Part shown: piece by piece, positions 22,681 through 41,971 of the stretch
Layout of the letters: every line of letters starts with the position of its first letter
Position numbering within the stretch: position 1 is the stretch's first letter
Origin: a virus
IMG/VR virus record: IMGVR_UViG_3300005573_000071
Span: 1-64,000 of that record
Length of the DNA stretch: 64,000 nucleotides
Strand: one strand, 5' to 3'
Translations under genes and position numbers: made by a program
The notes under the pieces: generated by a model
Told to the model about the DNA's origin: nothing
What the model saw: only the letters and a program-made list of their open reading frames with translations
The model's database searches: none

Positions 22681-22702
22681 GTTTGTTCCTATCGGAACAA
22701 AC
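22681..22702. promoter_or_regulatory. 9-bp inverted repeat carrying GAACA on both strands, upstream of RNAP-1 operon
   Basis: GTTTGTTCC-TATC-GGAACAAAC. Confidence 0.6.
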
Positions 22703-23056: not shown

Positions 23057-23507
23057 TTTGTTAAGTATTTACAATACATTAGAGCCTTTAGATACGCTTA
23101 TATCTCGTAACGATATCATTCTAAAGTCACTTATATTGACTAAGGGTGATTACACATTAAGTGGAGCTCGCTTCTCGTATAGAACAATTCCGGAGCTTAG
23201 AGATGTGAAGTGTGCGGAGGCAACAATCAATTTAGTTAGAGTTCAAATTCCTGTTGACTTGAACGTTTTGTGTGTATACGATAATACGTTCTTCTGGAAG
23301 CAAGCTCTTAACTTAACAGAGGGAGATTACGTGTTTGGTATTACAAATAGTGTAGTACATTCGTTTCCTGTACAAAATGTGGGGTTTGTGACTCTGGCAG
23401 ATTCTCAGGTTGAACTAACAAATACTGAATCGGACTCCACAATAGTGTTTATAGGATCTTATTTGGCAAACCTATCTCAGCGATATGTTGCAGTTGCCAT
23501 TAGATGA
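23034..23507 (+). CDS. Stand-alone Hint (intein-like) fold protein, probably non-splicing
   Basis: GAGGAGG RBS before ATG 23034; ILPQKANLLS..TLEPLDTLI..NDIIL (block A-like), WKQALNLTEGDYV, FIGSYLAN (block G-like). Confidence 0.5.
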   Translation: MILPQKANLLSIYNTLEPLDTLISRNDIILKSLILTKGDYTLSGARFSYRTIPELRDVKCAEATINLVRVQIPVDLNVLCVYDNTFFWKQALNLTEGDYVFGITNSVVHSFPVQNVGFVTLADSQVELTNTESDSTIVFIGSYLANLSQRYVAVAIR

Positions 23508-26431
23508 AACTATCTATCATCGATATTGATGCGTATGCATCTCAACTCACGGAAATCAAGCATGCAAGAGTTTTTGCACGTCCACTAATTTTAGATCCAG
23601 ACGGGTTACATTCTCCGTCAATTTACGCTACAGATCAAGATAGACGTACTAAGGTCTGCTTCTTTGATTTAGGCAGACCTTATGTGCATCCGTTCATTCT
23701 TTATGTTGCTCGTCGTAGATCGAAAGTACTATATGAAGGTATTCTAGGCAAGACGCCTCTATCGATTTCTGGTAAGACGTTAGTAAGTGACTTCGAGAAC
23801 GGACTACGTGGAACAGAACTTGTACGTGCTATCTTTGAGAAGCGTAGAGAGCTAGACATCTCTCCTACTTTAGTGAGGACTTTAGAGGGCGTAACATCCG
23901 TTAATACATTGCTTCCGACTAAAGTGCTTATAATACCGCCAGTCTTTCGACCTATAGCTCTTATAGGGGAGAATGAAGAGCAACATATTCATCCACTAGA
24001 TTTACTGTATTCACAATTAGAGAGTATAAGGGATGCAACAGAAGAAGTTCTTCATTCTCTAATGGATAAGATTGTTGTTTCTACAGTAGAAGCATTAAGA
24101 GGTAAAAGCGGAATTCTTAGGAGTACGTTACTTACACGTAGATTGGATTTTACAGCGAGATTGGTTATAACTGTTGATCCTACTTTACCTATAGATTATG
24201 CTCGACTTCCTTATCCCGTTCTTGCATTGTTGTTTGCTCCGTTCTTAGTTCGAGCACTCTTAGTTCCGCCTATGGAGTTGAAGCGAGCATTACAAGACGT
24301 AGGTATTTCTCTTAAGACTCCGGCACAAGCTGTCGCTCTAGTAGAAGCTTTCTATAGACGTAAATTACCTGCGAAAGTAACTTCTGCACTTACTTATTTC
24401 GTAGATTTTGTTGTGAAGGATAAAGTGATTATAGCAAAACGAGATCCTGTATTACATTGGGGCGGTGTGTTTGCATTTCGTCCTATTGGTTTCACATCTT
24501 CTACAGGTACTGAAGTTTATACGATGGCGATCTCTCCTTACATTACTACACCTATTGGTGGAGACTTCGATGGAGATACTATGGCAGTATTCGTACCACA
24601 TACTATTGAAGCACAAAGAGAGGCACAGCACTTACTTCCTTCTCGGAATAGATTTAACGTTAGTATAAATAAATGTCATTTCACTCCAAAGTTAGATTAC
24701 TTGCTTGCTCTATATATCTTAACGACGTCTGAGTTATCCGTTCTTCGTTCGCCGTTGCCAACAACTTCTCTTACTTTGAAGTATCCCAAACAGGAGCAAC
24801 CAACATCTCTTAGCAATGAGCTCAAAGATATTTCGTATCAAACTCCTGTATACGTGAGTTTGGTAAACAGTGGTAAAGTAGTTAGGTCTACTTACGGAAA
24901 ATATCTATTCAATTTATGTCATAATACAAATGAGTATTTCAACGAAACGATTACGAAGAAGAACTATTCTGAGATCTTTGATAAAATTGCTCGTATACTG
25001 AACGATCGTGCATTCTCCACTTTTCTGCAGAATTTGAATACTCTAGTGACGGAAGTTCTTAAGCGTTATCCGTTGAGTTTTATTTTGGAGAAGTGTGCTC
25101 CTCCAGACGAATTATTCTCTCCACTCAAGAAGGCGAAAGACGATCAACAGTTTGCTAAACTAGTGAAAGAAGCTACCACAAACTATATGAAGCATCTCAA
25201 GAAGAGTGATCCTTCTCTCTCGATCTATCTTGAGAGTGGAGCACGAGGTAGTGAGGACACACTAAGACAATTGTTTGTAGCTAGAGGCTATGTTGAAGAT
25301 GTACATGGTGCTATATCTGCTGTCGTTAGAGGCAACTACTTCGCAGGTCTTTCTGCGGAAGATATCTATAACTCTGCTCCAGGATGGCGTAAAGGTATCA
25401 TTGATAAGTCTATTGGTGTATCTAGCTCAGGTTATCTCACTCGTAAATTGATATATCTTTTAGAGAGTGTGACTTTAGGAGGTAGAGATTGCAGAACTAC
25501 TTCTGGTTTATCTTTGGATGTTTCACAAGTTGATAAGAGAAGTTTGTATGGCCGCCGTTTGATGGATAAGACAGTCATTACATCCGAGACGAATTTATCA
25601 GGTACGGTCGTGTTGCGATCTCCGTTTTATTGTGTAGATCCTAAAGGCATTTGTGAAGTTTGTTATGGAGAAGCAGTGGCTAGAGCAACCGCGATCGGAT
25701 TACTAGCAGCACAGACATTAGGAGAGCGAAGCACACAGCTTACGTTCAAGGCATGGCATAGTGGTGGTGTGAAAGGTACTGCAGAAGTAGTTGAGTTACC
25801 TCCGCCATTCAGAGTTGATAAAGGTGTAGTTTACGCAACTAAATCCTTCTCTTTAGTTGTAGATATAGATGATGAAAATACTAAAGCAACTGCTGTAGGT
25901 GTTATTTTGTATCCACAAGTTCTTAATCTCGTTGTCGAGAAAGGTAAGAGTAAGAAAGTAGATCTACCCACTACTCTACAACTCTCAACTCATATACCAA
26001 AGATTGTTGAGTCTGCTACACGTATCATCTACACGTTCAGGAAAGATGATATCGTAGGTAGTTTGTTGGGTTATGCTAGTGGTGTAATAAGTGTAGTCGA
26101 TCGGATTCACAAGCTTTTGGATACTCCATTAGAGTCTGCAACCGAACTCTTGTTTGAGTTATATAATATGTATAGAAGTGTAGCTATCTTACCGTTAGTT
26201 CATTTTGAGATCGTCACTATGGCATTAACTCGTTCTTCACGTGATCCAAATCTTGCATGGAGACTTGACCAGACGAGTAAGCCTGTAGTCGTGCCATTTA
26301 AGAAAGCTATACTATACAATTCTCCACTTGTTGCATTTCTCTTCTCTGATCCAGGGACTGGACTGCTCCAAATGGTAGATAAAGAGATTGATATTCATAA
26401 ACAAGGTGTGTTAGGGAGATCTGTGCTATGA
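23504..26431 (+). CDS. rpoC: Multisubunit RNA polymerase beta' subunit, copy 1 (putative virion RNAP)
   Basis: GKSGILRS.LL.RRLDFTAR, KRDPVLH, catalytic GGDFDGD, SGARGS, SGYLTRKL, GERSTQLTFKAWH; N-terminal Zn-finger cysteines absent. Confidence 0.93.
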   Translation: MKLSIIDIDAYASQLTEIKHARVFARPLILDPDGLHSPSIYATDQDRRTKVCFFDLGRPYVHPFILYVARRRSKVLYEGILGKTPLSISGKTLVSDFENGLRGTELVRAIFEKRRELDISPTLVRTLEGVTSVNTLLPTKVLIIPPVFRPIALIGENEEQHIHPLDLLYSQLESIRDATEEVLHSLMDKIVVSTVEALRGKSGILRSTLLTRRLDFTARLVITVDPTLPIDYARLPYPVLALLFAPFLVRALLVPPMELKRALQDVGISLKTPAQAVALVEAFYRRKLPAKVTSALTYFVDFVVKDKVIIAKRDPVLHWGGVFAFRPIGFTSSTGTEVYTMAISPYITTPIGGDFDGDTMAVFVPHTIEAQREAQHLLPSRNRFNVSINKCHFTPKLDYLLALYILTTSELSVLRSPLPTTSLTLKYPKQEQPTSLSNELKDISYQTPVYVSLVNSGKVVRSTYGKYLFNLCHNTNEYFNETITKKNYSEIFDKIARILNDRAFSTFLQNLNTLVTEVLKRYPLSFILEKCAPPDELFSPLKKAKDDQQFAKLVKEATTNYMKHLKKSDPSLSIYLESGARGSEDTLRQLFVARGYVEDVHGAISAVVRGNYFAGLSAEDIYNSAPGWRKGIIDKSIGVSSSGYLTRKLIYLLESVTLGGRDCRTTSGLSLDVSQVDKRSLYGRRLMDKTVITSETNLSGTVVLRSPFYCVDPKGICEVCYGEAVARATAIGLLAAQTLGERSTQLTFKAWHSGGVKGTAEVVELPPPFRVDKGVVYATKSFSLVVDIDDENTKATAVGVILYPQVLNLVVEKGKSKKVDLPTTLQLSTHIPKIVESATRIIYTFRKDDIVGSLLGYASGVISVVDRIHKLLDTPLESATELLFELYNMYRSVAILPLVHFEIVTMALTRSSRDPNLAWRLDQTSKPVVVPFKKAILYNSPLVAFLFSDPGTGLLQMVDKEIDIHKQGVLGRSVL

Positions 26432-29400
26432 GATTATCATCGTTACGATTAGGAATGATTGCAAATAATATCTATGTAGATCCATACGATAATATGTTGA
26501 TCGTTCTCTCTGACATAGATATGCCACCAATCTCTGATCTTGCGCCACACTTTCGGTTTGCTAAGTTGTTGTATGCTCCTTCTGTCGTCACATTAAATCG
26601 TACATGGCCACTTCGTGTTCCTTCTGTTAGTAAGCTGCGTGTAGTTCGAAATCTGAACACGTTGAATTCTACAAAATTGAGCGCAATATTTGATCTGCAG
26701 CCTGTTCTTAAACAAGCTGTCGCATTCTATGGAGATAACTTTATACGATCTCCGTATAAAACTTTTGCTCATACGTTGCTTCGTTACAGTAGAGAGTTTA
26801 GACGTCCGTATCGTTGGTTCGTATTTCTCACGGATACGAAAAAATGGAACGAGATGAATGTGAATCTTACGACACTACGTAGAAGCGTTCTCTATCTTTG
26901 CACTTACTTATTAGGCGTTGATGTAGAGAGTGAAGACGAGAGTTTGAGCGAAGTAAGTGTGAAAGGTATAGAAGGTATGCTTGTGGGTGTCTATGATCAA
27001 GCATCTAATAAGATCACGTTTTTCTGTGTTTATAGACATAATAGAAGTGTGTTTCCGCGTGTGCCTACATTTATCAGAAATGTTATCCATGGAGAACACG
27101 CTCCAGAAGAACTTGCTACGTCTTCACCTTCATCTCCACCAAAAACGGAGTCTGTAAGTGTTGCAACTCGTAAGTTCTCGAACTTACCGATAAGTAAGAA
27201 AGCCGTAGTTGATTCGATAGTAAAAGACGCCATTGATGTTGTTGGTGACTTTCTTGAGGAGCCTAGTACGACATCTCGAGTAAAAGATACTGTGGTAGGG
27301 AAAGCTCTTACGTGGGCACTCACAGGTAAGAAAAGAGAGATAACTCCGCAAGAAACGAAAGAACTCGTTTCTTTTGTTGCTAAACTAGATACGCCTACGT
27401 TAAAACTTGTGAAAGCGAGGACTGAACTATCAACACGTATATCTAACACGTTCGGTCCTCCTGTTACTGTAGGCGTCTTGACGAGGAAGGATAGCCACCT
27501 TAAAGCTGCTCTCGAATCTTTTCGACTGCCAAAAGGTATTGGTTGGGTAGTAGAAGATATCTCTGTGAAGCCTTATACATCTACTACAGAAGTTGCACGA
27601 TCTACATTAGATTTAGGCACAATCATCTTCAAAAACGAAGAGACGAATCAACGAGTAGCTGTGGAGCTCTTCATTCCTCGTATAGACAAAGACGGCTTCT
27701 TCTATTATAACGGAAACAAATATGTTTTTAGACATGTGCTTATACCTAAAACAATAACTGCACCTAGACTACTCACAGCAAAGTTTAACAATACTGTTAC
27801 TTTCTTCGAGATCTATCTAAGACGTATTCAGTCTCATACTACATTCTACCTAAACATGCTAGGTAACAGACTACCGTTGATTCAAGTTTTACTTGCATTA
27901 TTTCCGTTACGAGATATATTGAATACGTTCGGTATAAAACACTTACTCGCAGAACGTGAGTTAAAGATAGGAAAAGATACACTAATCATAGATTCTGCGT
28001 TATGTGAGTTTCTGTTCAACGGGCTTGAGATCGGTGGGAAGACTCCTAAAACACTAGATCAGGGTGAATGGTCTCAGTTCTTGGTGTCTAAGACACGTGA
28101 CACGAGTATCTTACGGAAGCTTGCTAGAGAGTTCAGTTTGATATTCGACAACGTGTTTGCGTTTGAAGCTAAATCTCTGGATCTATCAACACCTCTAGAT
28201 GTTGTGAAGTATATGTGCGAGCTTGCTATAAGTGGTGAAATGACGTCATCAACTGAGTTAAGCAACTATCGTATACGTACGTCGGGTCTAGACGAAGCTT
28301 TGATTCGTATGTTAGCTAGATTCTTTGCTAGTATGCCTTCTATAGAAAAGTTGCCCACTAGTAGATTTGCATTGATTAGATATCTATTACGTGAAGGCTG
28401 GTTGATGTCTGCTTCTGAAGGTAATCCGTTGGAGCTCCTTAGAGATTTATGCAGTGTAACAAACGTAAGTGTGGGAAGTTTTGCGACACCTATGGTAAGG
28501 AGTTTCCATCCGTCTTATAGAGGTGTTCTAGATCCCGTTGATACACCTAGTGGTGATACTATCGGCGTAGTTCAGCGATTAACGCTTACGAGTAGGATTA
28601 CGCCCACACTTGAACTAGACACAACTACTACATCTTATCCTTTTAGTTGGGCTGTATCAACTGTTCCTTTTGCAAGATTTAACGATGGTAATAGATTGCA
28701 GATGGCCGCAAACCACGTTCGACAAGCTGTACCATTGACGTATGCTGAACCACCATACGTAATTACAGGCATCGAGAGTGTAATACGAAAAGTGGCTGGA
28801 CTTGATATTCGTACAACTGTTGATGGAGTTGTTGAGAGTATTAAGCCAGAAGATGTACTCGTGATTAAAACTCCAACAAATAGAAGGTTTGAGTTCCGTC
28901 TTACACCTTTCGTTACAAGTCACAATTTCGTAGTACATTGGATGCCCACCATAAAGATTGGTACGAAAGTAAAGGCAGGAGACATAATTGCTACCGCTGA
29001 AGAACTTCATTTCAGAGATGATCTTACTCTAGGTACGAATTTGTATACTGCATTTATACCTTCATTGGACGTATTCGAAGATGCTGTAATGATTAGTGAA
29101 AGTGCAGCAGAAAGACTTACGGTTACAAAAGGTAACAAAGTTGTGCTCAAACTCCCTTCAGATAGTGTATTACTGCATGTCGCATCAGATAAGAAAATTA
29201 AGAAAGGAGATGCTCTTGTAGTTCTGGCTGGAAAAGGATTGCGTGTAGATACTTTGCTTGACGAGTTTGAGAAACAAGATGTTGTATTTGAGACGCAAGA
29301 GCGAAAAGTGTTTGTACGAGTTCCGGAAGATGTAGATGTTATGAGAGTGATGGTACATACAACTGCGAACTATCTTTCTGCAAACAAGATTCTAGCAGAT

Positions 29401-30303
29401 TATGTTAAACAGTTACCTGCAGACGACTTCACAGTACGTAATGCATTGACTTACAAAGGTGATCGTTATGGTTGTGTCATTTACTTCTACATAAAATGGA
29501 AAGCACCGATGACATTAGGAGATAAGCTAACAAATCGGCATGGTAATAAAGGTGTGGTATGTAAGATACAATCTCTACAAGAGATGCCAAGAGATGAGAA
29601 AGGAAGACCTTTTGAGCTTGTACTAAATCCATTAGGTGTTGTTGGTAGGATGAACTTAGGGCAAATGTTAGAGTTATATGCTTCGAATATCGTTCGCTAC
29701 TATAATGATTTGCTTATGAAAGAGAATTATTCTCAGAAAGCTATCACTACACTTGAGCGTATTCTTACAGCTCTGGATAAGACACCGAATAAAGCTGTTG
29801 TTGCTTATGGTCTCAGTAAAGCAAAACAGAAAGCGTTTATTCCTCTTGTAGTTCCTATGTTTAAGGAGCCCTCATGGAATGACCTACGTAGAATTGTACG
29901 TGATCTTGGAATCCCAACAACATCTCATATAGTCTGGAAAGACACACAAAGCTATACAGAAGTTCCTATTGGCTATATGTATGTATACAAGTTATATCAT
30001 GAATCGAGCTCGAAGGAGTCAGCAAGAGCAATAGGTGGATATCAGACGTTAGGTCATGCGATGCGAGGTAGATCACGAATTGGAGGACAGAAGATCGATG
30101 AGCAAATGTCTTGGACGCTATTAGGTAGAGATTTAGGTGCGATCACAAAAGAGCTGTTTGCTTATCCTGCAGATGTAGGTCCTCAGATCTTCAATAAGAT
30201 TGTTGAGAACGGCAGTGTTAGTTTAGCTGAGCTCTCGATTCCTAATAGAAACAGAGAATATCTACAATCGATTCTAGTCTCTTTAGGCGTAGAGCTGAAA
30301 TGA
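26428..30303 (+). CDS. rpoB: Multisubunit RNA polymerase beta subunit, copy 1, long N-terminal extension
   Basis: HPSYRG.LDPVDTP, NDGNRLQMAAN..RQA, FEDA, GDKLTNRHGNKG, LNPLGVVGRMN.GQ, GYMYVYKL.H, GGQK. Confidence 0.93.
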   Translation: MRLSSLRLGMIANNIYVDPYDNMLIVLSDIDMPPISDLAPHFRFAKLLYAPSVVTLNRTWPLRVPSVSKLRVVRNLNTLNSTKLSAIFDLQPVLKQAVAFYGDNFIRSPYKTFAHTLLRYSREFRRPYRWFVFLTDTKKWNEMNVNLTTLRRSVLYLCTYLLGVDVESEDESLSEVSVKGIEGMLVGVYDQASNKITFFCVYRHNRSVFPRVPTFIRNVIHGEHAPEELATSSPSSPPKTESVSVATRKFSNLPISKKAVVDSIVKDAIDVVGDFLEEPSTTSRVKDTVVGKALTWALTGKKREITPQETKELVSFVAKLDTPTLKLVKARTELSTRISNTFGPPVTVGVLTRKDSHLKAALESFRLPKGIGWVVEDISVKPYTSTTEVARSTLDLGTIIFKNEETNQRVAVELFIPRIDKDGFFYYNGNKYVFRHVLIPKTITAPRLLTAKFNNTVTFFEIYLRRIQSHTTFYLNMLGNRLPLIQVLLALFPLRDILNTFGIKHLLAERELKIGKDTLIIDSALCEFLFNGLEIGGKTPKTLDQGEWSQFLVSKTRDTSILRKLAREFSLIFDNVFAFEAKSLDLSTPLDVVKYMCELAISGEMTSSTELSNYRIRTSGLDEALIRMLARFFASMPSIEKLPTSRFALIRYLLREGWLMSASEGNPLELLRDLCSVTNVSVGSFATPMVRSFHPSYRGVLDPVDTPSGDTIGVVQRLTLTSRITPTLELDTTTTSYPFSWAVSTVPFARFNDGNRLQMAANHVRQAVPLTYAEPPYVITGIESVIRKVAGLDIRTTVDGVVESIKPEDVLVIKTPTNRRFEFRLTPFVTSHNFVVHWMPTIKIGTKVKAGDIIATAEELHFRDDLTLGTNLYTAFIPSLDVFEDAVMISESAAERLTVTKGNKVVLKLPSDSVLLHVASDKKIKKGDALVVLAGKGLRVDTLLDEFEKQDVVFETQERKVFVRVPEDVDVMRVMVHTTANYLSANKILADYVKQLPADDFTVRNALTYKGDRYGCVIYFYIKWKAPMTLGDKLTNRHGNKGVVCKIQSLQEMPRDEKGRPFELVLNPLGVVGRMNLGQMLELYASNIVRYYNDLLMKENYSQKAITTLERILTALDKTPNKAVVAYGLSKAKQKAFIPLVVPMFKEPSWNDLRRIVRDLGIPTTSHIVWKDTQSYTEVPIGYMYVYKLYHESSSKESARAIGGYQTLGHAMRGRSRIGGQKIDEQMSWTLLGRDLGAITKELFAYPADVGPQIFNKIVENGSVSLAELSIPNRNREYLQSILVSLGVELK

Positions 30304-30662
30304 TGGGAGTAGCATACAATCTCAAGCAAGTGTATGCTCTTGTGACGACTACACTTTCGTTCGTTCACGATAAAGTCTTTGCTTTCGAGGATACACAACG
30401 TGTTGATACTACGTTGACACAACCAATGAGTTATTACATAGATCGTTTTTGTGATTTATTAGGTAGCGTGGTTGAGAAGTACAATGTTCGTATGAGTGTA
30501 GCTAGTATGTTGGACTCTACATATCCTGAGCTTAGTGAGTATATAAGGTCTTTAGAGGATGTGGAGTTTATCGCCGTAATTAAGACAATAATGGAGGAGA
30601 ACATATGGCTCTTACTCTCTCCAGAAGTTCTTCGTATGTTGCTACACCTGAGTCGCTCGTAG
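30300..30662 (+). CDS. Hypothetical protein
   Basis: ATGA-coupled to RNAP beta. Confidence 0.55.
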   Translation: MMGVAYNLKQVYALVTTTLSFVHDKVFAFEDTQRVDTTLTQPMSYYIDRFCDLLGSVVEKYNVRMSVASMLDSTYPELSEYIRSLEDVEFIAVIKTIMEENIWLLLSPEVLRMLLHLSRS

Positions 30663-31222
30663 TTTACTATAAGTATGTAGCAACTATGCCTGTGTATCAG
30701 AAAACGATGAATGCGTTTATTGAGAGCGTAAGCTCGAAATGGAGAGAGTTTGTTAGTCAGAAGATAGAGTTGCATGTCTCTCCTTTCTACAAATATAAAG
30801 GTATGTTAGTGTGGCAGCCTACATTTGATTTTGATGGTGATCTGAGTAAAGTAGATCTTATACGTTTTTGTGAAAGTGAGATCATAGATGCTTATAATTG
30901 GTATGTCGAAGAGACAAAGGATGGCTACCATTTGTATAGTTGTGCGGGTTATAGTGGTCTTCGATTACGAGATATAGGAAAGTTACGAGACTTACTCACG
31001 AGTAAGTATAAATCTTATACGTCTCTCGATATTCGATCGTCTATTCGTCATTTACCTATTCGGAGACTTGCACTTTTGCAAGTTCCTGTACCAATAAGGA
31101 GATTTGGAAGTAAGCCAGAAGATATAAAAGATGAACTTCATTTTGCAAGCGTGTTACAGAAGTTTGTAGTTCCTACAAAAATGTATGAGTTTGATCGTGA
31201 GATCTTCCGAACATTAAGATAG
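30605..31222 (+). CDS. Archaeo-eukaryotic primase (AEP/PrimPol)-like catalytic domain
   Basis: FDFDG (DxD), ETKDGYHLY (His motif), LD...IRRL (third acidic motif); GGAGGA RBS. Confidence 0.55.
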   Translation: MALTLSRSSSYVATPESLVVYYKYVATMPVYQKTMNAFIESVSSKWREFVSQKIELHVSPFYKYKGMLVWQPTFDFDGDLSKVDLIRFCESEIIDAYNWYVEETKDGYHLYSCAGYSGLRLRDIGKLRDLLTSKYKSYTSLDIRSSIRHLPIRRLALLQVPVPIRRFGSKPEDIKDELHFASVLQKFVVPTKMYEFDREIFRTLR

Positions 31223-31223
31223 T

Positions 31224-31928
31224 ATGTTAACAAGAACATTTTTGTTCAATTATATCAAGACGAGACTAGGTCATCCTTATCTAGGTATTGAGATATCGGA
31301 TGATATGCTATGGGATATTGTTGTTCATCATACAATTCCTACATTTTCTTCGTATGTACCTACAGTCGCTTTCAAGGAGTTAACAGCCGCAGATCGAGAT
31401 CCTCAGAATCCTACACTTTATTACTTGAATGATGAAGACGGTGTGATAACTGTAAAGGATGTTGTGCTGCCTATGTCGAGTGCATTCGTCGTAGGACATC
31501 CTTGGATATTCATTCCTAGTTTCGAAGATCTGCCAGATCAAATTATGGATATTATGAAAGCACGTACTGTAGAGAGATACTCACTCTTTAGACACCAATG
31601 GGAGTTTATACCGCCAAATAAACTATATATCTATCCTACAAGGTTAACAGGATTTACAGCAACATTCTACGTTAGATACGAGAAGAATCATCCTTCAGAT
31701 TTAAGTACGATACCCACAGACTTTATACGTGATTTTTGTGATCTTGCTCTTGCAGATATATATGACGTTATAGCAGATATGAGGTCAAAGTATGCGACAC
31801 TGAATACTCCGTTTGGCGAGATCACATTGAATGCGGATGCACTTTCAGCAAAAGCAACTGAACTAAGAGATAGAATAATAGAGAGACTACAGTCTCTACC
31901 TCCTAATACAATCGTAGAAGTCGTTTAG
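31224..31928 (+). CDS. Neck/head-tail connector protein (gp13-like)
   Basis: YIKTRLGHP..IEI.D N-terminus; RSKY...P.GEITLNAD C-terminus. Confidence 0.75.
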   Translation: MLTRTFLFNYIKTRLGHPYLGIEISDDMLWDIVVHHTIPTFSSYVPTVAFKELTAADRDPQNPTLYYLNDEDGVITVKDVVLPMSSAFVVGHPWIFIPSFEDLPDQIMDIMKARTVERYSLFRHQWEFIPPNKLYIYPTRLTGFTATFYVRYEKNHPSDLSTIPTDFIRDFCDLALADIYDVIADMRSKYATLNTPFGEITLNADALSAKATELRDRIIERLQSLPPNTIVEVV

Positions 31929-31942
31929 AAAGGAGAGGAATC

Positions 31943-33567: not shown

Positions 33568-34097
33568 GAGGCATAGACTTTTCAGCGTGTAAGCATCGTT
33601 TTGTTGTACAATTACATGATGCCGAACGTGCTGGTAGACATTTCGATTTACGACTTGAGGCTTACGACAATGAGTCAAAGCAATGTGTACTCGTATCTTG
33701 GGCTACCCGAAAGTTAGATCAATTAATGTCAAGTAAAGTATCTCGTGTTGGACTATTCCGAACGGAAGATCATGAGCTAAAATGGTTGACTTTCAAAGGT
33801 GAGATTCGTGGAGGTTACGGGAAGGGTATAGTTAAGATACTAGATAAAGGTCAGTTTGAGGTTATAGAAGATAAACAGGATGTTTTAGCTGTGAAATTCT
33901 TGGGAGAAGTTTTGTCGGGTTCGTATGCGTTTGTGAAGCTATCGAACGAGAACTTTCTTCTTGTGAAGATGAAGTCTCAGAGTGAGTTTAATATGGCTGC
34001 AAGTATCTATCCGTATGCATGTTTGTTTTGTAGGAGACCACAACGATTACGTAGAATCAGAAGAGTAAGGAGGTTCAGAAATGAAGTCAATCCTTAG
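33555..34097 (+). CDS. Stand-alone LigD-type 3'-phosphoesterase (PE) domain
   Basis: RFVVQLH.A...HFDLRLE, LVSWA, TEDH, F.GEI.GGYG.G.V...DKG. Confidence 0.9.
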   Translation: MGLLRGIDFSACKHRFVVQLHDAERAGRHFDLRLEAYDNESKQCVLVSWATRKLDQLMSSKVSRVGLFRTEDHELKWLTFKGEIRGGYGKGIVKILDKGQFEVIEDKQDVLAVKFLGEVLSGSYAFVKLSNENFLLVKMKSQSEFNMAASIYPYACLFCRRPQRLRRIRRVRRFRNEVNP

Positions 34098-34353
34098 TAG
34101 GCTTAGTGTAGATTTACTTATCTTTTTAGTATTAGGTGTTGTTGCCATACTTGGTTTGTATCAAGAAATGCTACCTTCTCAAGAAGGAACACTACGTAGT
34201 ATTTTTCTTTATAGTTTAGCTACTCTGCATTGGTATGTTTCTAGAAGAGCGTTTATTGGTAAGATCGATTGGTTGTCAGAAGGAGATAAATGGAGAAAGA
34301 TACTCGCGTTTGTTATGCTTGCGGGTTCTTATCTTATCTACTCAAAAGCATAG
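34081..34353 (+). CDS. Holin (about three TM segments)
   Basis: 90 aa, hydrophobic spans, directly upstream of endolysin. Confidence 0.65.
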   Translation: MKSILSRLSVDLLIFLVLGVVAILGLYQEMLPSQEGTLRSIFLYSLATLHWYVSRRAFIGKIDWLSEGDKWRKILAFVMLAGSYLIYSKA

Positions 34354-34359
34354 AACAGT

Positions 34360-35007
34360 ATGAAGCTCATTTGCATTTTATTATTAGTAATGTGTATAGT
34401 ATCGGTAGGAGATACACGTGATTACTGTATCAATAATTATGGTGATTATGTAAAGAAGTATTCCACTAGATACTTTGGCGTAGACTTTCCTTATTGGTAT
34501 TCGATTGGAGTGCTAAAGACTGAAAGTAATTGTGTATGGATTCGAAGTAAGGATGGCCATAGGAGTATAGGTGTTGCACAAATAACTCCGAAGTGGTGGG
34601 ATGAAGAGTTGGTGAGAGCAGGATATGGTAAGTATGCAACCGATCCTGCGACTCATATAGGCGCATTCAAGTATATGTTGTTTCAGGTGTATACGCGTGT
34701 TATAGATACGTGTAGGACTCCAGAGAATACAAAAAAGCTATGGATTACTTATCAAGGACACAATCGTAGTATAGGTAAGTTGAATAGAGAGGTTCAGCAA
34801 GCGGGTGTTTGTTTGTACGATCTCTGGAGACTACTATGTAAAGAGAAAGATGTTTGTGTGTGGAGATTGCCAGATGGTTCTTGTAAACAGTGGAAAAATG
34901 GTTGCGACATAAATGGCAGTTATAGTCGTAAGGTTTACTACTACGGTAATCGGTATAAAAGATTTTTAGGTATCGATAGCTTCGAAACGAGGTACATATT
35001 TTGGTAG
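34360..35007 (+). CDS. Endolysin, lytic transglycosylase (SLT-like) with N-terminal signal/SAR
   Basis: Hydrophobic N-terminus, catalytic TES, GVAQIT motif; between holin and spanins. Confidence 0.8.
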   Translation: MKLICILLLVMCIVSVGDTRDYCINNYGDYVKKYSTRYFGVDFPYWYSIGVLKTESNCVWIRSKDGHRSIGVAQITPKWWDEELVRAGYGKYATDPATHIGAFKYMLFQVYTRVIDTCRTPENTKKLWITYQGHNRSIGKLNREVQQAGVCLYDLWRLLCKEKDVCVWRLPDGSCKQWKNGCDINGSYSRKVYYYGNRYKRFLGIDSFETRYIFW

Positions 35008-35010
35008 GAG

Positions 35011-35514
35011 GTGATGATGATGTTACCTAGTTTATCTAATCTAAAGATTGTAAGTATATTTGCAGTTCTACTTATAGTTCTTGGTTTAGGTGCTGGCCTA
35101 TTGTATTACAAGCAGAAGACGTATACGCTTACAGCTAATCTTGAGACTAAGAATATAGAGTTACAACGTGCAGCAGAACAGATTGCAGCTTTGAAGAGTC
35201 AGCAAGAGCATTTAGTGAAAAATGCGGGTGAGCTGAAAGCGTATTACGAAAAGATAGTTCAGAGAAAAGAAACAGAGATTAAGACACTTGTAAAACTTTG
35301 TATGAAAAAGGAGGGAGGTAATGTTAGTATTGAAAACAATACTAGCTCAGAAGCGGGTGATGGTAAAGGCGGTCAGCAAGTTAGTAGTGGTGATGAATTG
35401 CTTGATCTTCTGCGTAGCATGTTCAACGACTTCTCAGACACACGTAGCAATAGAACCAACTCCAGTAGTACTCCCATCAATACCAGAACGGCCGCAACTG
35501 AGTACCGATATTAA
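35011..35514 (+). CDS. Inner-membrane spanin (Rz-like)
   Basis: N-terminal TM plus coiled coil, after endolysin. Confidence 0.7.
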   Translation: MMMMLPSLSNLKIVSIFAVLLIVLGLGAGLLYYKQKTYTLTANLETKNIELQRAAEQIAALKSQQEHLVKNAGELKAYYEKIVQRKETEIKTLVKLCMKKEGGNVSIENNTSSEAGDGKGGQQVSSGDELLDLLRSMFNDFSDTRSNRTNSSSTPINTRTAATEYRY

Positions 35515-35680
35515 TTGGTTCAAAGATTCCGAAGGCAATTATTGTGTGACAGCAGAAGACGCACGCCGCTTATACCTAAACATTCGATTGTTAAGGAATT
35601 ACGCAGACGACTTAAACGATTTTGCTATTGCGGTTACAAGCATTTGTGGAGTAGAGAAAAATGGCGATTCCCACAAATAA
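35321..35680 (+). CDS. Outer-membrane spanin lipoprotein (Rz1-like), overlapping i-spanin
   Basis: GGGAGG RBS, lipobox-like CVAC-S, Pro-rich segment, +1 overlap. Confidence 0.7.
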   Translation: MLVLKTILAQKRVMVKAVSKLVVVMNCLIFCVACSTTSQTHVAIEPTPVVLPSIPERPQLSTDINWFKDSEGNYCVTAEDARRLYLNIRLLRNYADDLNDFAIAVTSICGVEKNGDSHK

Positions 35681-36050
35681 GATACGGGAGATCCAACGAC
35701 TGATTGCTGTACTTCGTACGAAACGAATCTCAAAGAGTGAAGCTGTATATATTCTCGATGAGTTGGAATACGCTTTTCGCTCAATTGCCGAACAAAGAGA
35801 AGTTAAGCCTACAACGAGTACTTTTCAGGAGCTTGCCGACCAACTTAACGGTCTTGTTGAGTCTCTTGTTTCTTTATCCAAGCAACCCGAGAATGAATCT
35901 GTCGTCACCAATATTGCAACTCAAGCAATAGTATTACTTGGGAAAAATAAGATGTCTCTTGTTGATACTACACGTGATAAACAATTGTTAGAGCAGTTGG
36001 AGAAAAGCGATAGAACGAAACGACTGTTGGCTAGATTCGCACGACGTTAA
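35661..36050 (+). CDS. Hypothetical helical protein
   Basis: 129-aa ORF overlapping the o-spanin end. Confidence 0.55.
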   Translation: MAIPTNKIREIQRLIAVLRTKRISKSEAVYILDELEYAFRSIAEQREVKPTTSTFQELADQLNGLVESLVSLSKQPENESVVTNIATQAIVLLGKNKMSLVDTTRDKQLLEQLEKSDRTKRLLARFARR

Positions 36051-36105
36051 CATAACAAACTACTATATAAAATATTTTTGTATACTTCTAGATTAGGAGG
36101 GAGGC

Positions 36106-39009
36106 GTGATAATATTATCAAGTTGGGAAGTATCTTCGTCTGAAATTCTTTTGCGAAAAGGTATCTTCCATCCTTTTGGTCTGTTCTCTGAGCAAATCTT
36201 CGGACCTAGAAAAGATTATAGATGTCAGTGCGGCAAGTTACAAGGCTTAGATTACCTTGGTAAGAGGTGTGATGAGTGTAACGTACTTGTCGCACCTTCA
36301 CTACTTCGTCGATATACGATGTCTCATATTCATCTGCCTTTCTCTATTATTCATCCTATGGCTATTATCTATCTGATGCCTCCCAGCAAGACTAATCTTT
36401 TACGGAATGTTGGAGACACTAAGACATATCAGATTTTGGAGGATTATATTCAATCAAATCCTTCTAAGTTTGCACAGTTCCAACGTTCGTTTCCGCTCTA
36501 CTTAGATAAGATACCTGTATTGCCACCTACACTACGTCCTGTTACTTTTACAGCGAGCAATAGAATAAAGGATTTAGATCGCTTGAACACTTACTATCTC
36601 AATATTCTTAACATTCTAGAAAAGTATATTGTGACGGATGACGAAGCGGTTGTTAATTTTACGAAACTCTCGATTCTGAAGGTTGCAGTTTCTTTGTATA
36701 AGTTGATTATACAGAAATTGACAAAGAAGGAAGGGTTGATACGTCAAAGTATACTTGGTAAGCGTAATGACTTCACAGGGCGTTCTGTTATAACTGTCGA
36801 TCCTACTTTGACGGCAGATACTGCGAAGATTCCTTACAGAATACTAGTATCGTTATTCCAGCTATATGTTGTGAATGAGTTAGCTCAAACTCGAGGAATG
36901 CTTACGGCTAGAGAAGCTGTAGATTCGTTTATACGAAATCCGCAGCTCTTATCTCTATCTGTCCGGGAAGAGATCAAAGAGATTGTTGACCGATTGTGCG
37001 CACAACACTTTATTCTTCTGAATAGACAGCCTACCTTACATCTATCTTCGATACGTGCATTCCGTCCTATAGGTACAGATGCTGACGCGATAGGCATACC
37101 TATGATTGTTACTCCGGGCTATAATGCGGATTTTGATGGTGACACAATGGCTGTGTACGCACCCCTTACAAAAGCAGCATTGATGGAAGCATCGTATATG
37201 ACGTTTGATCAGTATCCGTACGCACCTGGCTCACGTAGATTCAACGCTGTCACACAAGATATCGTTGTGGGATTGTGGTACGTTACAAAAGATGTTGTAA
37301 GTTCAAATGGTACAAGTGTTGTTGAAGTTACGAATGATGTCGTGTTAGAGGAATTACATCCGCATACATCTGTCTTTTGGAGAGGCAAAACAACGACTGC
37401 GGGAAGAGCATATATAGAGAGTTTATTGGATATTCCTATTAGTAAGCAACTATCGAAGTCTGCAATTTCGGAGTTACTTACAAATTGGATTGCGAAAGCA
37501 TCGTCTGACACAATTGTGCCTACACTATATAAACTACAACGATACGCATTGAAGTATGCCGCGTGTGTCACTATCTCGATTGACGATCTGATCGAAGGAG
37601 ATCTTACTTGGAAGCGTAAGTATGAACATGTTTCAAAGTGGTCTATACCTACAGTTAAAGCATTTAGTAGTGATGCGAAACACGCAGTAGAAACGTTATC
37701 ACTGAGTGAGAATATCGCTCCATTGTTACAATCGGGTGCTAGAGGTAAGCTGTCACAGTGGTCACAAGTTGTTGCGCTTAGAGGCCTTGTAAGAAATAGT
37801 TTAGGTAAGTTGATCTTGCCACCCATACTATCTTCTCTTGTTGAGGGTTATACGCCTTCTGAGATGATACGGTCTGCTGCAGGAAATAGAAAGGGCGCTG
37901 TCGATAAAGCATTAAATACTGCTGTATCAGGTTATCTAGCACGTAAACTAGTGTTCTCTCTACAACATCTTATGCTTGGAGATACAGACGATTGTGGTAC
38001 GAATATCTATCTTCCTTTCTTAGTAACTCCTCAGAATTACAAATCAATTATTGGGCGATATTTAGATGACGGAACTTATGTTACATATGAGAACGTCTCT
38101 TCGCTCATAGATCAAGAAGTAAGATTAAGATCTCCTATTGGGTGTAAGTCTGTTGATTTCTGCAAGAAGTGTTATCCGTATGATTGGGGGAGATCTAAGT
38201 TTGTAGGTATAATTAGTGCACAATGTATTTCCGAGGTTGCTACACAGTTAGTAATGCGTACGTTCCATTTAGGAGGTGCAGCTACAGATACTAAGTTTAT
38301 GAGTCTACCCGCGTGTGTTGATATTACAGATGACGATATTGTTGTAACAAACCAACCCGTAAGGATTGAGTTGCCTTCCAGTGTTCCTGTTGATCCTGCG
38401 GGATACGTGATCGAAGAGTTTGACGTCAAGCTACATACAGATACGGACATCTCTGTGATAACGATTTCGGAAGGCACACGATGGCTGCTAGACACAGACA
38501 AAGATATGTTACCTCCTCAAACTCCTCTCTTTGTTATCTCTGTTAAGACAACAGATCTAGCTACCGATCTTTCACACGTATCTAGACTTCTCAATAGCAC
38601 ATATATGACTACACTAGGTGACGCTCTGAACCAACTTACGAAGTTAGAAGAGACGTATGCTAGATATCAGCAGCTCTTATCTATTCATTTTGAAGTTTTG
38701 TGGAGTGAACGGTTGCGGGATGTAACTAGAACGGATCAAGCCCTACGCTTCTCTCTTACGGATTTTGCTGTAGACAAACAGGTAAGACTAGAGAGCGTAG
38801 CAAATCTACCACACCAACGTTTGTTATTGAGTTTGTGTTTTGAGAACTTTAGAAAATTCTTTACTTGTATGTTATCGTCGCAAGGTGGGAGTAAGATTTC
38901 TCCGCTGGAATATCTAATTCAGTCGAATCTAAGAGGACTTCAAGAGGATTTTGGGGCAGATGTAGTTGAAGAAAGTAAAGTAAGTATGTCACGAGAGGCA
39001 AGTGTATGA
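36106..39009 (+). CDS. rpoC: Multisubunit RNA polymerase beta' subunit, copy 2 (putative non-virion RNAP)
   Basis: GLFSEQIFGP..DYRCQCGK...CDECNV Zn finger, LGKRNDFTGRSVI, NRQPTLH, YNADFDGD, SGYLARKL, TQLVMRTFH.GG. Confidence 0.95.
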   Translation: MIILSSWEVSSSEILLRKGIFHPFGLFSEQIFGPRKDYRCQCGKLQGLDYLGKRCDECNVLVAPSLLRRYTMSHIHLPFSIIHPMAIIYLMPPSKTNLLRNVGDTKTYQILEDYIQSNPSKFAQFQRSFPLYLDKIPVLPPTLRPVTFTASNRIKDLDRLNTYYLNILNILEKYIVTDDEAVVNFTKLSILKVAVSLYKLIIQKLTKKEGLIRQSILGKRNDFTGRSVITVDPTLTADTAKIPYRILVSLFQLYVVNELAQTRGMLTAREAVDSFIRNPQLLSLSVREEIKEIVDRLCAQHFILLNRQPTLHLSSIRAFRPIGTDADAIGIPMIVTPGYNADFDGDTMAVYAPLTKAALMEASYMTFDQYPYAPGSRRFNAVTQDIVVGLWYVTKDVVSSNGTSVVEVTNDVVLEELHPHTSVFWRGKTTTAGRAYIESLLDIPISKQLSKSAISELLTNWIAKASSDTIVPTLYKLQRYALKYAACVTISIDDLIEGDLTWKRKYEHVSKWSIPTVKAFSSDAKHAVETLSLSENIAPLLQSGARGKLSQWSQVVALRGLVRNSLGKLILPPILSSLVEGYTPSEMIRSAAGNRKGAVDKALNTAVSGYLARKLVFSLQHLMLGDTDDCGTNIYLPFLVTPQNYKSIIGRYLDDGTYVTYENVSSLIDQEVRLRSPIGCKSVDFCKKCYPYDWGRSKFVGIISAQCISEVATQLVMRTFHLGGAATDTKFMSLPACVDITDDDIVVTNQPVRIELPSSVPVDPAGYVIEEFDVKLHTDTDISVITISEGTRWLLDTDKDMLPPQTPLFVISVKTTDLATDLSHVSRLLNSTYMTTLGDALNQLTKLEETYARYQQLLSIHFEVLWSERLRDVTRTDQALRFSLTDFAVDKQVRLESVANLPHQRLLLSLCFENFRKFFTCMLSSQGGSKISPLEYLIQSNLRGLQEDFGADVVEESKVSMSREASV

Positions 39010-40193
39010 ATGTATTAGAATGGCGAAAAGATGAAGTATCGGTTTGTTTAAGCTCTTTCTTACCACGTATTCTGGAGTGGTTTGCAGATAGTTGTAAGGA
39101 TAAGTTGAAGACGTGGAAGTTGCGTCCAATTTCTGTACAGCATTCTACATACGGATTTCATTTTACTAATGTAGTACTTGTTGTGTGCGAAACTGAGAAC
39201 TCTCAACAATTCTCGTTTAAGTTACCTATACCTAATGAGGATGATGTTTTCATTGTTAATGATATAGCATGGATATTAGTGAATGAGTTAACCGATCAGT
39301 TAGTATCCTATCGTTATATTCCTGAGGATAAATTGTTGATCAGATGGCAGGGTTCATTGTTTGCGGTTGTCGGAGATGAAAATGGTATACTGAGGATTAA
39401 AGACGAGAAAGTTCCTTTTTGGGTTCTACTCTACAATATCTTTACGAAAGATGAGCTCATTCAGAACGGACTGTATTTTGAGTTTGTGGATACTGAAAAG
39501 GTTGATTCGAAGTTCGCACGTTCTTTAGTATCTCAACCAAATTTGAGTGTGAAGTTGCCTACCCGCTACGAGTTTCTTACACCAATTCAACAGTTAGTGG
39601 TAAACTCGATGGTTCGGACACCTATTAAAGCGAAAGCGAAACTAAAGCAAGTTCCTAAACTGAATACAGACGTAGTTGAGTTTATTGAGCGGGAGTTGTT
39701 GGATCCTATTACGAGAGAGATTTACAATGTACGGACTGTGAAAGATCTACTTTATTTTACTATAAATGTGACGGAAGGAAAGCCGAAGACGACATTAACA
39801 GGTAGTAACTTGTACTTCAAGCGTGTAAGATCTTATGAGACGATAATGATAGCTCTTTATGAGAAATTGAGGGAGAACCAACAACAGCAGAAATATCAAA
39901 AGAAAGTCAAGATTGCTTCCGACTTTCTTTTGAAACGGCTCTTCACTTCACCTCAACTTCAACGTCTCTTTGAGTACTTTGACCAAACGAATATGTTTAA
40001 GGAGATATCTCTACGATATAAGGTTGTTGTTCCTCTTGAGTACATTCCATACGATATGCGAGATGTACACTATACTATGAGTAGTAACGTTTGTGTATAT
40101 GATACTCCTGACGATGAGGGAATTGGTGCTAAGTTACAGTTTGCTGTTGATTGTGAGTTACAGCGTAATGGTATTTTTGTATTGAAGAATTAG
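39006..40193 (+). CDS. rpoB: RNA polymerase beta subunit copy 2, N-terminal fragment
   Basis: L..KRVR, MRDVHY...VCVYDTP..IG; coupled to beta'. Confidence 0.8.
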   Translation: MNVLEWRKDEVSVCLSSFLPRILEWFADSCKDKLKTWKLRPISVQHSTYGFHFTNVVLVVCETENSQQFSFKLPIPNEDDVFIVNDIAWILVNELTDQLVSYRYIPEDKLLIRWQGSLFAVVGDENGILRIKDEKVPFWVLLYNIFTKDELIQNGLYFEFVDTEKVDSKFARSLVSQPNLSVKLPTRYEFLTPIQQLVVNSMVRTPIKAKAKLKQVPKLNTDVVEFIERELLDPITREIYNVRTVKDLLYFTINVTEGKPKTTLTGSNLYFKRVRSYETIMIALYEKLRENQQQQKYQKKVKIASDFLLKRLFTSPQLQRLFEYFDQTNMFKEISLRYKVVVPLEYIPYDMRDVHYTMSSNVCVYDTPDDEGIGAKLQFAVDCELQRNGIFVLKN

Positions 40194-40207
40194 AGGGAGG
40201 TGAAGGT

Positions 40208-41971
40208 GTGATAATGAAGTCGGTATTGAGTAGCGCGTTAAGTTGTGTGCCGTTTTGTGCGCATGATGATGGTAATAGACTACAGATGGCAGCTAACTTC
40301 TTACGACAGAGCTTAGTTTTAGTGAATCCGCAACTTCCATACATAAGTACGTCTTATTTACAAGAAGTTACAAAACTTACTACTTTTCTGAAGCAGGCAG
40401 CTGAAGATATACAGATCTTATATCGTAATGAAGAAATTGTTGTGTATAAATCATTGACCACAGGTAAAGTCTATTTATATAGGATACCGTCCTCACTTTG
40501 GTCTGTATCTGTACAAGACACTGTTAAGGAAGGAGAGGTATTTGCACAACACACTGCCGTAAAGTTTGGTAGATATTGTGCTGGAGCGAACCTGAAAGTT
40601 GTATTCGCTCCTTACGAAGGTTGGAACTATGAAGACGCTATTGTTGTGAGCGAAAGTGGTGCTCAGAAACTAACAAGTCAGTATGTTAAGTCTTTCGAGT
40701 TGATATTAGAACCTAACGAAGTTCTTATGAAGTATCCTATAGTTGGAAGATTCTATAAGAAAGGTGAGATACTATTCGAGTGGACGAGTGCTCCTAAGAA
40801 TCCGATCAATGTTCTTTGCACCTCTGTAGATAAACGAAGAATTTTCGCGGATGCAGACTTAGTTATCGAGCGGGTGTCTACGTATTATAAAAGTGAGAAG
40901 TATTTGGATTTGCATAAATCATCTCCGACAGTTCTTAAGTGGATAAAAGAGCATAACAAGCCGAAAGCTGTCAAGACTTTGTTATCGTCTATCGATCCAT
41001 CAATTGCTAAAGTTACTCCATTATACTTTCCTGAGAGCTACGAGTTAGTAGGCAATCAAGACGCAATAGTTATAGTGGCACAAGCAAAAATAGTTCGTTC
41101 ATTTTGTGTAGGGGATAAACTAGGTAATAGACACGGTAATAAGGGAGTTTGCTCTATAATTGTACCAGATCGTTATGTAACAAGTAAAGATGGTTGGGTT
41201 CCAGATCTAGTTCTAAATCCATTAGGCGTTATCTCTCGTATGAATATTGGACAGATCTTCGAGATGCATCTAGGAGAGGTATGTAGAGTTGTAGAAGAAA
41301 GAGTACGAGAGTTAGTAGAGTTTGAGAAATACGACGAAGCATTCAAGCTCTTACAGTCAATCGAGAAGATCACAAAAGGGACAATTCCATATCTACACTT
41401 GAAACTATCTGTGAAGGAACGATTGGCTCTACTACTTGAATTTGGTTTCACATTAGAGTTACCACTATACACACGTTCACCAAAAGAGATGATACGAAAA
41501 TGTATGAAGCTGCTTGGAGTATCTCCTACTAAAGTATGGCGAATGGGTGCACTTGAGAGAGATTTTGGTTATGGTACTATGTATTTCATGTCGTTGGTAC
41601 ATACAGTGGAGTCAAAGTTTAGTACTCGTGCAGACGGACCGTATCATATTAAGACATTACAGCCGTGTGATGACGAGTGTCATAGTTCTGGCCAACGATT
41701 AGGAGAAATGGAGATTTGGAACTTACTTGCATACGGAGCTATACATAATGTTGTCGAAACATTAGGATTCAAAGCGGATGATATAATTGCAAAAGAGAAT
41801 ATGATTTCACACTGTTTGAAAGTAGGTGAGCCACCCGTAGCTCCCGACTCGGTCTATACAAACCACTCTTTATATTTGTATCTATACGCTCTTGGCGTAA
41901 ACGTAGGAGGAGTATCCGTTTTATCTGATACGGATGTTGCACAGAAATGTCTTGAGTGGGGAGATTTGTAG
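40208..41971 (+). CDS. rpoB: RNA polymerase beta subunit copy 2, C-terminal fragment
   Basis: HDDGNRLQMAAN..RQ, GWNYEDAI, GDKLGNRHGNKG, NPLGVISRMNIGQ, GQRLGEMEIW; own GGGAGG RBS. Confidence 0.93.
   Translation: MIMKSVLSSALSCVPFCAHDDGNRLQMAANFLRQSLVLVNPQLPYISTSYLQEVTKLTTFLKQAAEDIQILYRNEEIVVYKSLTTGKVYLYRIPSSLWSVSVQDTVKEGEVFAQHTAVKFGRYCAGANLKVVFAPYEGWNYEDAIVVSESGAQKLTSQYVKSFELILEPNEVLMKYPIVGRFYKKGEILFEWTSAPKNPINVLCTSVDKRRIFADADLVIERVSTYYKSEKYLDLHKSSPTVLKWIKEHNKPKAVKTLLSSIDPSIAKVTPLYFPESYELVGNQDAIVIVAQAKIVRSFCVGDKLGNRHGNKGVCSIIVPDRYVTSKDGWVPDLVLNPLGVISRMNIGQIFEMHLGEVCRVVEERVRELVEFEKYDEAFKLLQSIEKITKGTIPYLHLKLSVKERLALLLEFGFTLELPLYTRSPKEMIRKCMKLLGVSPTKVWRMGALERDFGYGTMYFMSLVHTVESKFSTRADGPYHIKTLQPCDDECHSSGQRLGEMEIWNLLAYGAIHNVVETLGFKADDIIAKENMISHCLKVGEPPVAPDSVYTNHSLYLYLYALGVNVGGVSVLSDTDVAQKCLEWGDL

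Follow-up and report, generated by a model that had tools for sequence, protein, structure and literature searches.

Two diverged beta'/beta RNA polymerase cores in a phage with T4-type head and tail genes

We analyzed a DNA stretch of 64,000 nucleotides (hereafter, the window), which is the first 64 kb of the single-contig viral record IMGVR_UViG_3300005573_000071 (G000; 99,356 bases, classed as linear), and focused on the genes for multisubunit RNA polymerase (RNAP) that it carries. Two PF00623 loci and two PF00562 loci were found in G000. They belong to two sets of genes, each complete, free of internal stops and on the plus strand: set 1 consists of beta' (23504-26431) and beta (26428-30303), and set 2 of beta' (36106-39009) and a beta encoded by two genes (39006-40193 and 40208-41971). 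The original prediction had placed these sets in a phage with T4-type head and tail genes, and such genes were indeed found: the Gp23 capsid (PF07068, E = 1.1e-33), the Gp20 portal, a T4-type TerL, an S77 prohead protease and the tail sheath, as well as a baseplate wedge. It is confirmed that a phage with morphogenesis genes of T4 type encodes two complete and strongly diverged beta'/beta cores. Two beta/beta' sets are also found in phiKZ/AR9-type phages, whose dual system of a virion and a non-virion RNAP is well described (Yakunina 2015; Lavysh 2016/2017; Sokolova 2020, PMC7598289; PMC5312081).

Set 1 beta' is a protein of 975 residues with GGDFDGD at residue 354 and KRDPVLH where NRQPTLH is usual. 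The CxC...CxxC zinc finger is absent from its first 160 residues; a second zinc site is kept (C663/C710/C717/C720). The beta gene overlaps the beta' gene by ATGA and is translationally coupled to it. It is unsplit and encodes 1291 residues, with NRHGNKG at residue 1037 and DEQMSW in the place of the usual GEME. Homology to other beta subunits begins only at approximately residues 362-371, hence the N-terminal extension of ~370 residues (26428 to ~27540) is real. All of the features by which set 1 had originally been described (GGDFDGD, no N-terminal zinc finger, an unsplit beta and the extension) were borne out at their predicted positions. The extension has no recognizable fold or family: the ESM Atlas gave no hit, only three relatives were found among 1.84 billion representatives, and the AlphaFold2 model was unusable (predicted local distance difference test, pLDDT, 41). 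Further along the protein, residues 474-1074 align with the virion RNAP beta of phage RP12 (hhalign probability 98.3%). Homology between the set 1 extension and that of RP12 ORF041 was undetectable (second hhalign hit, probability 14.7%).

Set 2 beta' (967 residues) has the N-terminal zinc finger (C40/C42/C55/C58), NADFDGD at residue 342, and NRQPTLH. The N-terminal beta gene (39006-40193, 395 residues) ends just past the Rpb2_3 (fork) domain, and the C-terminal gene (40208-41971, 587 residues) begins 20 residues before DGNRLQM and carries NRHGNKG and GEME. At the split point (40174-40207, plus strand), a run of five Ts (40174-40178) is followed by a TAG stop (40191-40193), a GGGAGG ribosome site, and a GTG (40208) or ATG (40214) start. 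The two reading frames switch at the T run, and a run of six Ts would restore a single open reading frame (ORF). In the related metagenome contig L185, set 2 beta is a single gene of 976 residues, and the two window genes match its residues 3-389 (47% identity) and 396-967. Moreover, the run of five Ts is bridged without a gap by a ~96% identical contig from an RNA library of another sample, that is, from a second strain. Given this contig and the unsplit beta of L185, the split looks real and recent; on these sequences it is a local event rather than a hallmark of the system. The original description of set 2 (NADFDGD, zinc finger, a two-gene beta and no GAACA upstream) was correct, and each beta gene has its own start, but the two-gene beta does not extend to L185 and is not a feature of the system. 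The split lies where the phiKZ/AR9 non-virion beta is also split: the non-virion betaC pieces of AR9, G024, RP12 and SPN3US start 20-50 residues before the DGNRLQM motif. This coincidence would reflect either a permissive linker that was hit twice or a shared tendency to split.

Between the two sets, identity is 28% for beta' (E = 1e-50) and 26% for the C part of beta (E = 1e-34). The strings VITVDPTL in beta' and DGNRLQMAAN in beta, earlier pointed out as common to the two sets, are present in both. So are intact catalytic motifs (the Asp triad and the RHGNKG lysines), and both cores are apparently active. The gene order, beta' then beta, is the same in both sets and the opposite of bacterial rpoBC. 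Parts of both sets are covered by contigs of ~95% identity from four hot-spring or microbial-mat metatranscriptome libraries; libraries of this kind may contain DNA, and the contigs are uninformative on transcription, strand and level.

The pair of sets recurs in other phages. L185 (43.5% GC) is syntenic with the window at 24-55% protein identity (37-55% when only polymerase and terminase genes are counted) and carries, in this order, set 1 beta' and beta; homologues of orf32, orf33, orf35 and orf37; set 2 beta' and beta; a homologue of orf46, and TerL. Its set 1 beta, at 1312 residues, includes the extension. Three IMG/VR phages that are distant from the window and low in GC (G001-G003, up to 244 kb) each have a set A (beta' of ~1005 residues and beta of ~1365 residues with an extension) and a set B (beta' of ~905 and beta of ~1010 residues). 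Reciprocal best BLAST hits pair set 1 with set A and set 2 with set B, and a Gp23 capsid is also found in G002. Sequences P0001-P0005 are further orthologues of set 1 beta'. Since set 1/A and set 2/B orthologues occur in distant phages, the duplication is not local to the lineage of the window, and the polymerase pair, as seen in these genomes, is old and widespread. The original prediction of a distinct system that arose from a duplication within the phage lineage was not upheld, given the separate orthologues in L185 and G001-G003 and the placement of virion beta'N pieces inside set 1/A.

That placement comes from a tree of the N-terminal part of beta', up to 75 residues past the catalytic motif (44 rows, 427 columns, LG+C20+F+G4; a FastTree run served as a first look only). 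The AR9 non-virion pieces were identified by their letter-for-letter match to the chains of PDB 7S00, which the other pieces do not match. Bacterial beta' sequences were monophyletic (ultrafast bootstrap, UFBoot, 100; approximate likelihood-ratio test, aLRT, 100) to the exclusion of both sets. Set 2 showed a flat 27-32% identity to bacterial beta' of many phyla. In a search with NCBIfam TIGR02013 and TIGR02386, the beta' scores were 230.8 and 340 (the latter for set 2) against an equivalog cut-off of 963.5, and the beta scores were 198.7 and 215.2 (again the latter for set 2) against 801.15. Because bacteria form a clade that excludes both sets and the identity is flat, neither set is host-derived. 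Set 1, set A and the virion beta'N of AR9-like phages, RP12, SPN3US and Fusobacterium phage JD-Fnp4 formed one clade (UFBoot 98, aLRT 97). Set 2 grouped with P0026-type metagenomic sequences (99/98) and weakly with set B (75/82). The phiKZ-type non-virion beta'N were monophyletic (99/98) and lay on the bacterial/mReC side of the tree, mReC being a group of uncultured phages considered below. An approximately unbiased (AU) test rejected a clade of window-type sets that excludes the phiKZ-type pieces (p = 0.0014), as well as the union of all phiKZ-type pieces in one clade (p = 0.015). Since virion beta'N lies inside the set 1/A clade and the AU test agrees, the window pair looks akin to the phiKZ/AR9 pair and not like an independent one.

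The N-terminal zinc finger is an independent character. It is missing from set 1, set A and every virion-type beta'N, and it occurs in bacteria, in single-set phages, in sets 2 and B, and in several non-virion beta'N. A beta gene of 1400-1480 residues comes immediately after the virion beta'N gene in RP12 and SPN3US; its product is homologous to other beta subunits only from approximately residue 795 and must therefore have a long N-terminal extension too. Cysteine makes up 0.5-0.8% of set 1 residues, as in capsid and portal, versus 1.3-2.0% in set 2 and a genome mean of 1.3%; the beta' of sets 1 and A are both below those of sets 2 and B.

Set 1 belongs to an operon, orf28-orf29-beta'-beta, on the plus strand. 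orf28 (22724-23056, 110 residues) and orf29 (23016-23507, 163 residues) overlap each other and the beta' gene (ATGA junction). orf28 had no PHROG hit; we noted a weak match, below the cut-off (E = 0.017), to a domain that in bacteria binds beta, the CarD/TRCF RNAP-interacting domain. Downstream are orf32, orf33 and orf34 (30300-31928, plus strand); the first two adjoin set 1 in L185 too, and orf34 is a virion structural or neck-type protein (phrog_18911, E = 2e-29). At the head of the operon is a TGTTCC-TATC-GGAACA palindrome (22684-22699, plus strand) that contains GAACA (22695-22699) 29 nt before orf28, and it is a candidate late promoter or operator. The original prediction that set 1 lies behind a GAACA motif is thus right for the operon as a whole, whose first gene is orf28, and not for beta' directly. 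GAACA(A/T) was found 29-51 nt upstream of 12 genes (tail sheath, capsid, orf28 and nine others), and neither before replication genes nor before set 2. With this motif in common with tail sheath and capsid and a virion structural gene downstream, the genomic context of set 1 looks late.

GAACA resembles the AR9 late promoter, AACA-N6-T(A/G), which is recognized by the AR9 non-virion enzyme (PMC5312081), although the likeness is suggestive only. It was not conserved upstream of the RNAP genes of G001-G003, nor upstream of set 2 in L185. We also observed that GAACA is the right arm of a TGTTC-N4/6-GAACA palindrome at two operon heads, those of orf25 (20570-20583) and orf28 (22684-22699). TGTTC-N-GAACA palindromes were not above chance (two found; 16 of 100 shuffles reach this number), and a palindromic GAACA would fit binding by a dimeric regulator, or formation of a hairpin, no less than it fits a promoter. 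The region ahead of set 2 (36047-36105, plus strand; 55 nt intergenic) lacks GAACA. It has an AT-rich stretch and a weak sigma70-like match, TTAACA-18-AATATT, at 36047-36076. Between window positions 20000 and 39900, sigma70-like matches were depleted (30, versus 55.6 with a standard deviation of 8.3 in dinucleotide shuffles). In L185, terminator-like GC-rich hairpins with T runs bracket set 2 (15765-15840 and 9930-9965); none was found at the matching places in the window. orf46 (41974-43083), which follows set 2, was considered as a fifth RNAP subunit and rejected, its ESM Atlas neighbors being baseplate GpP/gp44/gpD-like proteins; its AlphaFold2 model was useless (pLDDT 30).

CheckV estimated G000 to be 35% complete. 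The record is therefore a fragment, in which missing genes are weak evidence, and the phage is probably jumbo-sized. Near-identical DNA was found in hot-spring and microbial-mat metagenomes. As originally predicted for the window, no alpha or recognizable sigma was found: even the whole 99-kb record, with the completeness just given, has no match to sigma70 region 2 or 4 (PF04542, PF04545) or to alpha (PF01000), and G001-G003 have no PF04542 match. A protein at G000 71373-72248 was considered as sigma-like and rejected, being unsupported by Pfam, PHROGs and PDB sequences. The DNA polymerase is of family A (PolA) and is fused to a uracil-DNA glycosylase (UDG): the 908-residue protein at G000 72239-74965 (L001:10239-12965) consists of an N-terminal UDG, a 3'-5' exonuclease and the polymerase. 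An anaerobic NrdD, DnaB, a ligase and genes for 7-deazaguanine synthesis are also encoded. The latter include GTP cyclohydrolase I (window 16178-16810) and a glutamine-amidotransferase/QueC-like protein (G000 66798-68282, L001:4798-6282), a pair that suggests 7-deazaguanine modification of the phage DNA; such modified DNA could be one reason for the phage to have its own polymerases.

We compared the window with several kinds of known phages. T4-like phages (Straboviridae-type) have Gp23, Gp20, T4-type TerL and a gp21-type prohead protease in common with it. Their DNA polymerase, by contrast, is of family B, and they redirect the host RNAP with the phage sigma gp55/gp33, whereas no sigma was detected in G000, gp33 and gp55 not having been searched for specifically. 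The phiKZ/AR9 phages are without alpha, omega or sigma; in the 35% complete record, searches for alpha and sigma70 gave no match. Their virion beta'N has the zinc-finger loss and the clade in common with set 1, and their virion-type beta follows beta'N and has a long N-terminal extension, as in set 1. They differ in having each enzyme in four to five pieces, while in the window both beta' and set 1 beta are single ORFs and only set 2 beta is split. Their replication relies on a divergent PolB instead of a UDG-fused PolA, and neither chimallin nor PhuZ was identified here. The contention that phiKZ/AR9 morphogenesis genes are not T4-like proved too strong. The capsid gene of the AR9-like phage Goe21 (OM728297.1, 99925-100608) lies above the Gp23 Pfam cut-off (28.5 bits, E = 6e-8), which makes the divide between a T4-type and a phiKZ/AR9-type head less sharp than usually stated.

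The third group, mReC, comprises uncultured tailed phages with a Gp23 capsid (PF07068), some larger than 200 kb, whose beta/beta' genes branch outside bacteria (Weinheimer and Aylward, 2020, Nat Commun 11:4506, PMC7481178). The window has the same capsid family, and its beta and beta' stand apart from their cellular homologues, in trees that include the window-type sets but not the mReC authors' own sequences. The fused beta-beta' enzymes of mReC type are nearer to bacteria than either window set. Many viral contigs, among them the IMG/VR contigs L065-L070 (100-190 kb), encode a single-set beta-beta' fusion ORF of 2000-2500 residues, and these branch next to bacteria. As to whether relatives with this arrangement have already been described, Supplementary Data 1 of the mReC study includes one contig (3300000243 SA_S2_NOR18_50m) for which two COG0085 genes and three COG0086 genes, that is, two sets, are recorded. 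The text of that study treats one RNAP per phage and discusses neither two sets, nor virion and non-virion roles, nor links to phiKZ (PMC7481178). The window's own contig ids were not found in its tables, and unsplit dual sets were not described in the later papers and reviews searched. The dual layout is therefore already present, unremarked, in a phage group published in 2020 (PMC7481178).

Among cultured phages, JD-Fnp4 (ON464764.1, 180 kb) has a virion-type beta', JDFnp4_84, that is a single protein of 930 residues without the zinc finger, and a second, non-virion-type beta'N that keeps it; the non-virion beta' is split, with an N piece of 482 residues. The virion-type protein has DLDGD rather than DFDGD and is remote from set 1 (E = 4e-9). 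No Gp23 or PF00562 match was found in the JD-Fnp4 record, in which the virion-type beta' gene (L167 9951-12743) carries the annotation 'subunit alpha'. Cobetia phage Carin-5, Yersinia phage YerA41, Vibrio phage Va2 and Rhizobium phage RHph_TM30 are large myoviruses with a bacterial-type beta'. Carin-5 and YerA41 have the beta' then beta order of the window, but all four have one set only and fall on the bacterial side of the tree, and in Carin-5 a sigma gene adjoins beta'. In RHph_TM30 (L058, NC_070966.1, Kleczkowskaviridae, 208 kb, cultured), a beta' gene of 1127 residues adjoins PolA; as PF00562 found no beta anywhere in this genome, the beta' is a lone one.

Of the explanations considered, the most likely, at about even odds, is that the phage runs a two-polymerase program of the phiKZ/AR9 kind with almost uncut enzymes. 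Under such a program, set 1 would be the counterpart of the virion RNAP: it would be made late together with the head and tail proteins, packed into the capsid, injected, and would then transcribe the first genes of the next infection. Set 2 would correspond to the non-virion polymerase: synthesized after injection, it would transcribe the middle and late genes, set 1 among them, and a short GAACA-type promoter may serve the late genes. As marks of these putative roles, set 1 has a derived beta' that has lost the zinc finger, together with a beta whose long N-terminal extension is private to it, and set 2 has a beta' in which the zinc finger and the canonical motifs are kept. What the sequences show is two intact, diverged cores, kept as a pair in distant phages and placed outside bacteria, with set 1 tied to virion-type beta'N by one tree and one rare character; packaging, timing, promoter use and independence from the host RNAP are inferred.

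A number of observations weigh against this program. Two thirds of the genome are not in the record. The flanks of set 2 are of late type, with a spanin-like gene upstream and a baseplate-hub-like gene and TerL downstream, and hence set 2 does not stand in an 'early' context. The AT-rich element ahead of it occurs only once in the 99-kb record, and no early promoter motif was found. The enrichment of GAACA 25-55 nt upstream of starts is modest (14, versus 6.2 in shuffles, p ~0.003), and the anagrams AACGA and AAACG score 13, nearly equal to it. A homologue of the fifth non-virion subunit (phiKZ gp68, AR9 gp226) was not found, no proper search for it having been made. As for phylogeny, a single alignment block, the beta' N terminus, carries the link between set 1 and virion RNAPs; the branches are long, and the groups for the AU test were named after the tree had been seen. 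In the same tree set 2 did not group with phiKZ-type non-virion beta'N, and a G014 piece whose best match is the AR9 non-virion beta'N fell in the virion clade. The tree of the beta' C terminus joined sets 1 and 2 with weak support and put set B nearer to bacteria; it holds only one virion-type sequence because Pfam finds only the non-virion beta'C. In the beta tree all deep nodes were open, with no support either way for joining set 1 to virion beta.

The same facts might be accommodated by two non-virion polymerases that split the temporal classes, with the host RNAP or an injected factor of unknown nature starting transcription, set 2 serving the middle genes and set 1 the late genes without ever being packaged. 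This we regard as rather unlikely. It would be in keeping with the TTAACA-18-AATATT match before set 2, with the position of both sets among late-type genes and with the fact that nothing shows packaging, and single-set relatives such as Carin-5, with its sigma beside beta', point to a more bacterial-like use. However, sigma70-like sites are depleted overall, set 1 has its clade and its zinc-finger loss in common with known virion-borne enzymes and is cysteine-poor like virion proteins, and a polymerase for late genes alone would have no need of a beta' this derived or of a beta extension of its own.

Another account, which we find improbable, is a duplication inside the T4-type (mReC-like) lineage, independent of phiKZ/AR9, so that the grouping with virion enzymes would be an artifact of long branches or convergence. 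The beta' C-terminal tree placed set 1, set 2 and P0026-type sequences together (aLRT 92, a polytomy), both sets lie on the same side of the N-terminal tree (85/85), they have the short strings in common, and the deep nodes of RNAP trees are notoriously unstable (PMC7598289). The N-terminal tree and the AU test nevertheless put virion beta'N inside set 1/A, the zinc-finger loss is shared, and any duplication predates the split from the low-GC phages G001-G003 and so is not local.

A recent capture of one set from a bacterial host would explain why set 2 keeps NADFDGD, NRQPTLH, GEME and the zinc finger at ~30% identity to bacterial beta', but it is scarcely tenable given the flat identity across many phyla, the scores far below the equivalog cut-offs, the exclusion of both sets from the bacterial clade and a gene order opposite to rpoBC. 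Nor do we give much credit to the idea that one set is a decaying, non-functional paralogue: the departures of set 1 (GGDFDGD, KRDPVLH, DEQMSW for GEME) and the frame change in set 2 beta are outweighed by five ORFs open over 395-1291 residues with the Asp triad and RHGNKG lysines kept, by orthologues of both sets conserved over very large distances, and by a split that has a strong ribosome site, falls where the phiKZ/AR9 enzymes tolerate one and recurs in a second strain.

As to origin, we tentatively entertain, while thinking it less probable than its opposite, that Gp23-capsid phages keep the ancestral, uncut state of the phiKZ/AR9 enzymes, which would go back to one ancient whole-gene duplication in a tailed-phage ancestor followed by later fragmentation. 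Whether the two enzymes stem from a duplication or from two acquisitions was stated as not known in a 2026 review of jumbo phages (PMC13282480). Should the ancestral-uncut state be true, it would settle this matter, and the window would capture fragmentation in progress, as a single-base frame change at the site where the phiKZ/AR9 non-virion beta is split.

The value of these findings is tempered by the publication of the phage group in 2020, with the dual layout visible in its supplementary data, and by functional roles that are inferred only. The two-polymerase strategy, with one enzyme injected and one made later, is what frees phiKZ/AR9-type phages from host transcription. The apparently recent break in set 2 beta, at the point where phiKZ/AR9 enzymes are also cut, illustrates how readily such enzymes fragment at a permissive linker. 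Whole beta'/beta pairs beside a T4-type head offer less scrambled and more alignable sequences for the question of origin, and whole-subunit sets would provide simpler, two-chain cores for expression and structure work.

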